Below are positions 13,669-18,296 of a stretch of 21,246 nt of DNA, one piece after another. A program made the position numbers and the translations under genes. The stretch spans positions 1 through 21,246 of the IMG/VR virus record IMGVR_UViG_2534681772_000016; one strand, written 5' to 3'. The DNA is from a virus (Duplodnaviria > Heunggongvirae > Uroviricota > Caudoviricetes). The notes under the pieces were generated by a model. That model searched no databases. It worked only from the letters and a program-made list of their open reading frames with translations, and had not been told where the DNA came from. The number at the start of each line of letters is the position of its first letter. The first letter of the stretch is position 1.

Positions 13669-14376
13669 ATGGATTTGAACAAATTCGATGAGCCATTCAG
13701 CCCTGAAGATATCGAATGGCGAATACAGCAAAGCGGTAAAACACGCGATGGCAAAGTGTGGGCTATGGTGCTGGCTTATGTCACGAACCGGGCAATCATG
13801 AAACGCCTGGACGATGTTTGCGGCAAAGCAGGATGGCGCAATGAATACCGCGATATTCCCAACAACGGCGGAGTTGAATGCGGCATATCAATCAAGATTG
13901 ATTCCGAATGGGTAACCAAATGGGATGCTGCTGAAAACACGCAGGTAGAAGCCGTCAAAGGTGGTCGTTCCGGTGCAATGAAGCGTGCTGCCGTTCAATG
14001 GGGAATCGGTCGGTATCTGTATAACCTTGAGGAAGGTTTCGCACAAACATCTCTCGATAAAAAGCAGGGGTGGCACAGGGCAAAACTGAAGGATGGAACA
14101 GGATTTTACTGGCTTCCTCCATCGCTGCCGGGATGGGCAATCCCAGCATCAGATAACAAACCATCACCAGAAAATACCAACCAGAAATCTCCATCGGTTG
14201 ACTGCGAACAAATCCTGAAAGACTTCAGCGATTATGCGTCAACAGAAACTGACAAGAAAAAACTCATCGAGCGTTATCAGCGTGACTGGCAATTAATGGC
14301 TGGCAACGAGGAGGCGCAGGCTAAATGCGTTCAGGTAATGAACATCAGAGTTAACGAACTAAAACAGGCGGCATAA
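13669..14376 (+). CDS. Single-strand annealing protein, Rad52/Sak-like family recombinase
   Basis: The motif GGRSGAMKRAAVQWGIGRYLYNL is typical of Rad52-family annealing proteins. The gene sits immediately upstream of ssb in the recombination module. Confidence 0.65.
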   Translation: MDLNKFDEPFSPEDIEWRIQQSGKTRDGKVWAMVLAYVTNRAIMKRLDDVCGKAGWRNEYRDIPNNGGVECGISIKIDSEWVTKWDAAENTQVEAVKGGRSGAMKRAAVQWGIGRYLYNLEEGFAQTSLDKKQGWHRAKLKDGTGFYWLPPSLPGWAIPASDNKPSPENTNQKSPSVDCEQILKDFSDYASTETDKKKLIERYQRDWQLMAGNEEAQAKCVQVMNIRVNELKQAA

Positions 14377-14883
14377 ATGGCAAGCAGAGGCGTAAATAAG
14401 GTGATTATCCTTGGTCGGGTAGGACAAGACCCGGAAGTTCGATACTCACCATCAGGAACAGCGTTCGCTAACCTGACAATAGCCACGTCAGAACAATGGC
14501 GAGATAAAAATACTGGCGAGCAAAAGGAATTGACTGAATGGCATCGTGTTGCTGTATCCGGGAAACTGGCTGAGGTCGTTGGGCGGTATGTGAAAAAAGG
14601 TGATCAGATTTATTTCGAGGGAATGCTGAGAACCAGAAAGTGGAAAGACCAGTCAGGGCAAGACCGTTACACAACCGAGGTTCATGTCGGAATTAATGGC
14701 GTGATGCAAATGCTTGGCGGCATTGGCGACAGCAAACAACAAGCAGCCAGCAGGCAATCACAGAAGCCACAGCAGCAATCATCACCAGCACAACACAACG
14801 AACCTCCGATGGATTTTGACGACGATATACCCTTTGCACCAGTAACTCTCCCCTTCCCTCGTCACGCTATTCACGCAATTTAA
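14377..14883 (+). CDS. ssb: Single-stranded DNA-binding protein with a 15-aa extension beyond the DDDIPF tip
   Basis: OB-fold N-terminus [44 protein letters not shown]...; Gln/Pro-rich linker; ..[11 protein letters not shown] followed by [15 protein letters not shown]. Confidence 0.9.
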
Positions 14884-14896
14884 TCAGGAGAAAAAC

Positions 14897-15193
14897 ATGC
14901 CAGCGCCTTTGTATGGTGCGGATGACGCGCGCCGCTGTTCCGGCAATTCCGTATCGGAGGTGCTGGATAAATTCAGAAAAAACTACGATCGGATAATGTC
15001 GCTACCGCAGGAAACGAAAGAGGAAAAGGAATTTCGCCACTGTATATGGCTTGCAGAGAAAGAAGAGCGCGAGCGAATTTACCAGACATCAATCCGACCA
15101 TTCCGCAAAGCCACATATACCCACTTCTCTGAATATATCGACCCGCGCCTGCGTAATTACCGCTCACGCTATGGCGCTATCAGTAATGACTGA
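14897..15193 (+). CDS. Hypothetical protein (98 aa)
   Basis: The ORF MPAPLYGADDARRCSGNSVSEVLDKFRKNYDRIMSLPQETKEEKEF... has a GGAG RBS and lies in the accessory region after ssb. Confidence 0.5.
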   Translation: MPAPLYGADDARRCSGNSVSEVLDKFRKNYDRIMSLPQETKEEKEFRHCIWLAEKEERERIYQTSIRPFRKATYTHFSEYIDPRLRNYRSRYGAISND

Positions 15194-17082: not shown

Positions 17083-17409
17083 ATGACTAAAAATACTCGT
17101 TTTTCCCCCGAAGTCCGTCAGAGGGCGATTCGTATGGTTCTGGAAAGTCAGGGCGAATATGACTCACAGTGGGCGGCAATTTGTTCCATTGCCCCAAAGA
17201 TTGACTGTACACCGGAGACTCTGCGTGTCTGGGTACGCCAGCATGAGCGGGATACCGGAGGCGGTGATGGCGGGCTCACCACCGCTGAACGTCAGCGTCT
17301 GAAAGAGCTGGAACGTGAAAATCGTGAACTGCGCCGCAGTAACGATATCCTTCGCCAGGCTTCCGCTTATTTTGCGAAGGCGGAGTTCGACCGCCTCTGG
17401 AAAAAGTGA
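17083..17409 (+). CDS. IS3-family transposase OrfA (HTH)
   Basis: The 108-aa product [40 protein letters not shown]... has a leucine-zipper-like C-terminus and matches IS629/IS1203-type OrfA as recalled. Confidence 0.9.
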
Positions 17410-18296
17410 TGCCACTGCTGGATAAGCTGCGTAAGCTGTACGGGGTCGGACCGGTATGCAGTGAACTACATATTGCCCCGTCAACGTATTACCACTGTCA
17501 GCAACAGCGACATCATCCTGATAAACGCAGTGCCCGTGCGCAGCGCGATGACTGGCTGAAGAAAGAGATACTGCGCGTATACGATGGGAATCATCAGGTA
17601 TACGGTGTGCGTAAAGTCTGGCGTCAGTTGTTACGGGAAGGAATCAGGGTAGCCAGATGTACAGTGGCGCGCCTCATGGCGGTTATGGGACTTGCCGGTG
17701 TTCTCCGGGGTAAAAAGGTCCGCACTACCGTCAGCCGGAAAGCCGTTGCCGCAGGCGACCGCGTAAACCGTCAGTTTGTGGCAGAACGTCCTGACCAGTT
17801 GTGGGTGGCTGATTTTACTTACGTCAGCACATGGCAGGGGGTCGTCTATGTGGCGTTCATCATTGATGTGTTTGCCGGATACATCGTGGGGTGGCGGGTC
17901 TCATCGTCTATGGAAACGACATTCGTGCTGGATGCTCTGGAGCAGGCGTTATGGGCCCGTCGACCGTCCGGCACAGTCCATCACAGTGATAAAGGTTCTC
18001 AGTATGTATCGCTGGCCTACACACAGCGGCTTAAGGAAGCCGGATTACTGGCATCAACAGGAAGTACTGGTGACTCGTATGACAACGCGATGGCGGAGAG
18101 CATCAATGGCCTTTACAAAGCGGAGGTAATACACCGTAAGAGCTGGAAAAACCGGACAGAAGTGGAGCTGGCCACACTCACGTGGGTGGACTGGTATAAC
18201 AATCGACGATTGCTGGGAAGGCTGGGCCATACTCCTCCGGCAGAAGCAGAAAAAGCTTATTATGCTTCCATCGGAAACGATGATCTGGCAGCCTGA
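17406..18296 (+). CDS. IS3-family transposase OrfB (DDE domain), normally made as an OrfAB fusion by -1 frameshifting
   Basis: The 296-aa product has ..WVADFTYV.. and ..HHSDKGSQY.. and ..[15 protein letters not shown].. (the DDE triad context). It overlaps orfA in the -1 frame at an A-rich site. Confidence 0.9.

Follow-up and report, generated by a model that had tools for sequence, protein, structure and literature searches.

A conserved peptide directly after the acidic tip of single-stranded DNA-binding proteins encoded by mobile elements of Gammaproteobacteria

The SSB (single-stranded DNA-binding protein) of a P22/Sf6-like prophage was found to carry the acidic tip of its family internally, with a 15-residue peptide (the tail) following the tip phenylalanine. 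The region was analysed as one stretch of 21,246 nucleotides (positions 1 to 21,246 of the IMG/VR record IMGVR_UViG_2534681772_000016), hereafter called the window. We consider it probable that the tail is a genuine, translated and selected C-terminal peptide 'cap' of 14-16 residues, placed directly after the tip Phe, that alters the interaction specificity of SSB. The capped tip is the mark of a large class of SSBs on mobile elements of Gammaproteobacteria, namely phages, both temperate and virulent, and IncN plasmids.

The ssb gene and protein of the window

The 168-aa SSB is encoded by a single ORF at window positions 14377..14883 (+), which contains 168 codons plus TAA and matches PF00436 (E = 5e-36) and phrog_44 (E = 5e-66). 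The OB-fold ssDNA-binding domain (residues 6-104; 14392..14688, +; PF00436, E = 5.3e-36) is followed by a Gln/Pro/Ser-rich linker (residues 115-142; 14719..14802, +), assigned as disordered from its low pLDDT and poorly conserved alignment columns. The acidic tip (residues 143-153; 14803..14835, +), read from the sequence, ends with Phe153 (codon ttt, 14833-14835) and is internal here, not C-terminal. It is continued by the 15-residue tail (14836..14880, +; codons gca cca gta act ctc ccc ttc cct cgt cac gct att cac gca att TAA), with the stop codon at 14881-14883. An earlier reading of the same DNA, made from the sequence only, had reported an SSB tip buried under a 15-residue extension; in the ORF and translation of 14377-14883, its coordinates and quoted sequence proved exact.

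The protein belongs to the bacterial SSB family in its fold, linker and tip: the PF00436 features are in place, namely the OB-fold domain, the disordered linker and the acidic D-D-D-I-P-F tip. The free C-terminal Phe carboxylate that is the hallmark of PF00436 SSBs is absent, with 15 residues after Phe153, and the translated protein is thus predicted to be an SSB without the functional hallmark of its family, a free C-terminal tip. For the window SSB, an AlphaFold2 model (monomer, 53-sequence alignment) had a pLDDT of 82-90 over residues 11-100, with a beta-barrel strand pattern, and of ~30 over residues 115-168 (linker, tip and tail). The model depicts the tail as disordered, and within this disordered region it would act like a short linear motif. 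That the tail docks on the OB fold of the same molecule was considered and rejected, the monomer model leaving residues 115-168 at pLDDT ~30. No PDB chain contained the tail, and only 13 tip residues matched any chain.

Genomic setting

The window corresponds to the early region of a P22/Sf6-like prophage, with best matches to Sf101, IME10 and Sf6. Directly upstream of ssb lies the gene of a Rad52/Rad22-family single-strand annealing protein (13669..14376, +; PF04098, E = 5e-26), whose stop codon overlaps the ssb start (TAAATG) and whose counterpart is annotated as an Erf-like SSAP in Huey, Sf6 and epsilon34. Directly downstream, the Abc2 anti-RecBCD protein is encoded (14897..15193, +; PF11043, E = 2.4e-61). 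The window ssb belongs to the recombination module of the pL (leftward early) operon, composed of the Rad52-like annealase, ssb and abc2. Encoding by a mobile element, in either a recombination module of a phage or the leading region of a plasmid, is a defining trait of the capped-tip group and is seen here in the P22/Sf6-like prophage and in the annealase and Abc2 neighbours.

Elsewhere in the window, the Rfam ALIL pseudoknot (RF01497, 116 bits) was matched at 17364-17480 (+), overlapping the junction of the ORFs 17083-17409 and 17406-18296. The match indicates an IS3-family insertion sequence with a programmed frameshift site inside the early-left region of the prophage.

Distribution of the tip-plus-tail

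The sequence-only reading had named a sequencing error at the stop codon as grounds for dismissing the extension. Such an error is contradicted by the recovery of the gene at at least 99% identity in 160 E. coli genome records and in HK75, mEp235 and mEpX2, which are independently sequenced phages whose ssb genes are 99-99.8% identical to that of the window (99.8% for HK75). The contiguous 78-nt tip-plus-tail junction was present in 297/5,426 complete E. coli genomes. At the protein level, the 15-residue tail was borne by ~110 of the 120 clusters closest to the query, from Escherichia, Salmonella, Klebsiella, Citrobacter, Enterobacter, Kluyvera, Phytobacter and Pluralibacter; the premise of the earlier reading, that SSBs end exactly at IPF, was too strong.

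A degenerate DNA scan of one genome per species yielded ~40 true tail cases. The genera included Proteus, Providencia, Moellerella, Pantoea, Sodalis and Vibrio, and further Glaciecola, Pseudoalteromonas, Oceanisphaera, Oceanimonas and Zobellella, so that the tail is found in the orders Enterobacterales, Vibrionales, Alteromonadales and Aeromonadales. The Salmonella phages epsilon34, g341c and NM-3 carry an ssb with 88.8% nucleotide identity to the window and an identical tail peptide, and the same tail is borne by ECP1, CP-1639 and E. coli W, whose ssb is of a second core type with ~74% DNA identity. Proteus phages, too, are among the carriers of the junction. Searches by tblastn with the 28-residue end returned 104 phage records, 39 of them from Vibrio phages and others from large virulent phages of Klebsiella, Salmonella and Escherichia, together with 88 plasmid records (58 typed as conjugative). 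Both plasmid records examined were IncN, carried NDM or KPC and encoded a capped-tip SSB. The form seen in the window is the common allele and in itself ordinary; as a class, it is unexpected.

On these IncN plasmids, the capped-tip ssb (L194:2006-2539 of pYNKP001-NDM and L195:1904-2437 of pKPC-SMH) adjoins a convergent gene for a SprT-family metalloprotease and antirestriction genes (ardR and others), near repA. A type IV secretion signal was considered as a role of the tail in IncN SSB and rejected: the one paper examined gives it no support, and the phage cases would stay unexplained.

Selection on the tip and tail

The 58 distinct tails that were collected (46 with 15 residues, 11 with 14 and one with 16) follow the pattern [AS]-P-[VIL]-[TG]-L-[PQM]-[FY]-[PG]-...-hydrophobic end. 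Pro2 and Leu5 are invariant, position 3 is V, I or L, position 4 is T or G, position 7 is F or Y and position 8 is mostly P; in all 58, the last residue is I, L, M or V and the penultimate residue is small or hydrophobic. The window tail fits every position of the table compiled from them. In 53 tail-bearing canonical SSBs, the tip residues F147, P152 and F153 were invariant, and conservation of D148-150 was at least 90%. The comparison with related ssb alleles that the earlier reading had proposed shows a conserved extension of fixed length (14-16 aa).

In 27 diverse enterobacterial loci, the entropy at codon positions 1/2/3 was 0.54/0.33/1.23 bits per site for the tail and 0.33/0.29/1.38 bits for the tip. 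By the pooled Nei-Gojobori method, dN/dS was 0.15 over the tail as a whole and 0.21-0.22 when limited to codons left unfixed by the search pattern, values that are rough, being pooled over non-independent pairs and with some codons fixed by the search pattern. Between the tails of the window and of locus L072, 7 synonymous and 0 non-synonymous differences were counted, the amino acids being identical. An RNA-level role of the tail DNA was rejected: the RNA fold of the tail region was no better than that of shuffles (z = 0.40), no Rfam family matched there, and the downstream ribosome-binding site lies after the stop codon. With an unexceptional RNA fold and no Rfam match, conservation of the tail acts at the protein level, and the codon pattern shows purifying selection on both tip and tail. 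A programmed frameshift to an isoform ending at IPF* was also rejected, no slippery heptamer being found in register; the +1 frame of the window has a stop two codons on, and alternative-frame stops fall inside the tail region in only 19/27 and 3/27 loci.

These data bear on the reading that the tail is an accident, in which a lost stop codon or a sequencing error gave run-on translation of a meaningless peptide; the sequence-only reading had offered a 'decay mutation' as one option. Decay is made plausible a priori by the prophage setting, and decayed neighbours do exist (the phiKp_30 endonuclease remnant and the rearranged copy in E. coli EC931, described below), but the same tail recurs in hundreds of independent genomes (the 297/5,426 E. 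coli genomes among them), in free phages, in IncN plasmids and in several orders, with a fixed length, conservative substitutions and a dN/dS of ~0.15-0.22. Decay is refuted by the distribution and the codon pattern together, and its remaining probability is negligible. The other ground on which the earlier reading would have given up its interpretation, an extension widespread and functional in a defined SSB subfamily, held for the spread and for selection, from which function is deduced.

Modularity and possible partners of the tail

Proteins of at least five ssDNA-binding architectures end with the tip plus tail: canonical SSB; a short PF00436 SSB of divergent sequence ('MAIN...', 151-157 aa); the phrog_743 SSB (243-251 aa, no Pfam match); a ~400-aa two-OB protein of Vequintavirinae (KB57_040, Bas50_0088); and OB-fold proteins of Vibrio phages. 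The tip-plus-tail is a portable module.

A conserved phage-encoded partner beside ssb was sought by neighbourhood clustering of 38 loci and rejected, as nothing was constant: the neighbours of tail-bearing ssb genes vary, and include Rad52-like, RecT plus PDDEXK nuclease, RdgC, DUF2303, Dam and exonuclease genes. Because no phage-encoded neighbour co-varies with the tail, the partner would be a host protein or SSB itself, and is probably a conserved host protein.

Two specific roles were weighed. ClpXP reads C-terminal signals such as ssrA-LAA and MuA-KAI, and the tail ends resemble ClpX signals. The tail could be a degradation tag with a non-polar end (...HAI, ...YVI, ...LAM, ...YAL), read by ClpXP, that keeps the SSB of the element short-lived, and also the endonuclease that borrowed the tail (see below). 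All 58 tails end with I, L, M or V after a small or hydrophobic residue, and a potentially toxic nuclease bears the tail as well, both of which favour this role; the best-conserved part, however, is the N-terminal AP-x-[GT]-L-x-[FY]-P and not the last three residues, and a degron needs neither that part nor a position directly after an intact tip. We judge this role unlikely.

The other role is a tether to the host beta sliding clamp, in which P-[VIL]-x-L-x-[FY] and the acidic flank would bind the clamp and link it to SSB-coated ssDNA. The clamp motif closest to the tail is, we presume, that of Hda (QLSLPL). The clamp-binding consensus is Q-phi-x-[L/M]-x-[F/L], with a strong contribution of Gln to affinity (PMC11139829). 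The tail agrees with consensus positions 2, 4 and 6 (V/I/L, L and F/Y) and has an acidic flank (DDD upstream), but position 1 of the motif is always Pro and never Gln (tail position 2 is Pro in 57/57 tails of 14-15 aa), and the residues listed for position 6 do not include Tyr (PMC11139829). The pattern is moreover of low complexity and low information content, and the seven conserved residues after it are left unexplained; a clamp tether is given a low probability.

An HNH-like endonuclease at the tip/tail boundary

In Huey and Sf6, ssb ends with ...NFDDEIPF* or ...DDSDIPF* and is followed by an HNH-like endonuclease gene (phrog_2340). The endonuclease is Cys-rich (155-160 aa), and its last 14 residues are identical to the tail and encoded by the same 46 nt; the Sf6 GenBank record already notes '14 contiguous amino acids identical to ... 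E. coli SSB'. The Huey ssb is otherwise 98-99% identical to the window ssb. Examples of the endonuclease gene are Sf6 gp26 (L002:1984-2463), Huey (L001:1978-2445) and E. coli HZDC01 (L005:1567-2049). The Sf6-type protein had no Pfam match and matched only phrog_2340. In 99 complete E. coli genomes, its gene is the immediate downstream neighbour of ssb and is unannotated by RefSeq/PGAP ('none' under every match). Among 119 tail-bearing viral contigs, the tail was on the SSB tip in 92, on the endonuclease in 24 and elsewhere in 3.

The endonuclease is absent from the window, which represents the empty, tail-on-SSB allele. Its presence or absence concerns one exact position: the window and HK75 lack the gene and Huey has it, with flanks 98-99% identical. 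From the junction sequences, the homing/insertion site was inferred at 14808..14841 (no strand assigned), where the gene takes the place of 'gc(a)', with ttt (14835) on one side and cca (14839) on the other. The window and Huey ssb genes have 2 mismatches in nt 1-431 and 8 in nt 432-456 (window 14808-14832), which places 8/10 within the last 28 nt before the insertion; the clustered differences are mostly synonymous, plus D-to-N and D-to-E. Sf6-type occupied alleles have one extra Ser codon. A mismatch cluster of this kind is what co-conversion or a self-immunity tract would leave at a homing site, and the coding junction of tip and tail would mark a putative homing site of the endonuclease.

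The direction of the event is clear: the endonuclease gene entered after the Phe codon and before the second tail codon, gave ssb a stop codon and read into the old tail, so that the endonuclease borrowed the tail from ssb. This direction is favoured because the phrog_2340 profile ends before the tail and homologues at other loci end with ...HKHNKPIY(xx)*, without it, and because divergent tails occur on SSBs far outside the range of the endonuclease, at loci classed by peptide context alone with their flanks unscanned for the gene. On the grounds of the same profile and homologues, the tail was rejected as an intrinsic part of the endonuclease.

The opposite reading, that the tail is an Sf6 gp26-type C-terminus fused to ssb by deletion, with no role beyond that of a by-product or of a homing or boundary sequence in the DNA, is very unlikely. 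The identical 14 residues at the end of the endonuclease in Sf6, Huey and 24/119 viral contigs are compatible with it, as are partial-deletion chimeras (P0131, P0134, P0144, P0173) and the 46-nt tail DNA, almost identical in the E. coli and Salmonella loci despite the variation of both flanks. Besides the profile and the tail-less homologues, it is opposed by the divergent tail on SSBs of Vibrio, Proteus, Glaciecola and IncN plasmids (assigned by peptide context only, flanks unscanned), by the junction 'ttt gc/a cca', which cannot be derived by simple deletion of the Huey arrangement, and by the three-base periodicity in the ssb frame, which shows protein-level selection.

Rearranged forms of the locus were also observed. 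P0131 and P0134 are chimeras of an SSB N-terminus and an endonuclease C-terminus, and P0144, P0173, P0180 and P0183 are chimeras of an endonuclease N-terminus and a 3'-5' exonuclease; as partial-deletion leftovers, these ORFs suggest a cycle of invasion, decay and loss at the locus. In the Klebsiella phage phiKp_30 (L006:1851-2054), the endonuclease gene between ssb and the exonuclease gene is reduced to its first ~40 and last ~70 nt, and the tail has drifted (...PRHAAYAI), which is consistent with relaxed selection once it was detached from a complete ORF. In E. coli EC931 (L004:1896-2059), a truncated holin pseudogene of the lambda family has been fused to '...atataccctttgc', the tail and abc2; the rearrangement has its breakpoint within the inferred target of the endonuclease, 13 nt upstream of the tail.

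Predicted consequences for partner binding

Partner proteins bind the last SSB residues: a hydrophobic pocket takes up the Phe side chain, and basic residues hold its alpha-carboxylate. With the tail in place, the terminal carboxylate of the tip Phe would no longer be free, and the tip should not dock canonically in the pockets of host partners, because a single added Gly abolishes binding of chi and DnaG: E. coli SSB with one C-terminal Gly (SSB+Gly) had no detectable binding to chi or DnaG primase and was impaired in vivo, complementing only under slow growth (PMC3045619, PMC3632105). By analogy with this mutant, the expectation of the sequence-only reading that the extension would disturb tip-mediated docking is supported. 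From established SSB biochemistry, the pockets concerned would be those of chi, DnaG, ExoI, RecQ, PriA and others, and ssDNA coated by capped SSB would fail to attract the host SSB interactome in its normal manner. The option, raised by that reading, of a variant that leaves host partners unrecruited remains the most likely direction.

A pure mask fails to explain the strong conservation of both the tip and the tail sequences. Because a bare mask needs neither a conserved sequence nor an intact DDDIPF, the tail, or the tip and tail together, probably forms a second short linear motif with a different interaction specificity. If a mask alone is insufficient, the tip may work internally, tip and tail may make up a composite motif, or the tail may be removed post-translationally. 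Sf6, Huey and IME10 have a canonical IPF* SSB through the endonuclease insertion, yet are viable; the tail on SSB is therefore inessential for laboratory growth.

A more far-reaching proposal, which we offer tentatively as less probable than not but worth stating, is that the capped-tip SSBs (of temperate phages, rV5-like virulent phages, Vibrio phages and IncN resistance plasmids) are an unrecognised class that avoids canonical tip recruitment of host nucleases, helicases and restart proteins, and whose tail engages another host factor. Under this proposal, capped SSBs would coat the ssDNA of the element and possibly mix into host tetramers, and a portable peptide module would rewire the SSB interaction hub, with homing endonucleases targeting its coding junction. 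Literature searches by peptide string, keyword and concept, which mostly did not cover subscription journals, found no description of the tail other than the GenBank note on Sf6 gp26; a prior description may exist.

Significance

The free C-terminal Phe of SSB is treated as a universal handle that recruits at least 17 genome-maintenance proteins, and as a drug target. The universal free-Phe rule is contradicted by SSBs that bury this handle and form a class that is natural, widespread and under selection. The capped-tip class is present in ~5% of E. coli genomes, on NDM/KPC IncN plasmids and in many phages. Capped alleles can be paired with uncapped ones in near-identical phages (HK75 and the window vs Huey; ECP1 and E. 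coli W vs Sf6; Bas50 vs Bas55), which provides a natural experiment. The practical relevance is that phage SSBs trigger retron and DRT defences and that pairs of phage annealase and SSB are used for recombineering, where the SSB tail decides portability.

Comparison with known systems

The E. coli chromosomal SSB and the plasmid F SSB share with the window protein the PF00436 OB fold, the disordered Q/P-rich linker and an identical acidic tip. Their tip is the true C-terminus, with a partner-bound carboxylate, whereas that of the window is internal and followed by 15 residues. The only experimental analogue found is the engineered SSB+Gly (Naue et al., PMC3045619, PMC3632105), in which the tip is likewise extended beyond Phe. 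That extension is artificial, one residue long and causes loss of function, whereas the tail found in nature is 14-16 residues long, conserved and under selection, which argues for a gain or change of function rather than plain loss.

The endonucleases Sf6 gp26 and Huey CDS0028 (phrog_2340) have the identical last 14 residues, the same 46-nt DNA and the same genomic position, but are another protein, absent from the window, with the tail outside their family profile. The HK620 SSB, encoded with Sak4, resembles the window SSB in being a phage SSB beside a phage annealase at the same operon position, and its C-terminal residues mediate functional coupling with Sak4; it is, however, a distant homologue that ends with NDYPPF-COOH, with a free terminus and no cap (PMC5928155).

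The two-OB SSB-like proteins of Vequintavirinae have the same tip and, in KB57_040 and Bas50_0088, a 15-aa tail of the same kind, and in tail-bearing members a homing endonuclease gene adjoins the 3' end. They differ in their unrelated ~400-aa N-terminal architecture, and a close relative, Bas55_0086, ends at IPF* without the tail. Bas52_0087, of the same family, is reported to be the trigger of the DRT10 defence (bioRxiv 10.64898/2026.04.29.721553). Of the rV5-like BASEL phages, Bas50 (DrSchubert) encodes the two-OB protein with tip and tail at L198:901-2172, its 3' end overlapped by a 'putative homing endonuclease' gene (2144-2767), and in Bas55 (JeffSchatz) the protein (L197:901-2127) ends at IPF* and the homing endonuclease gene is absent.
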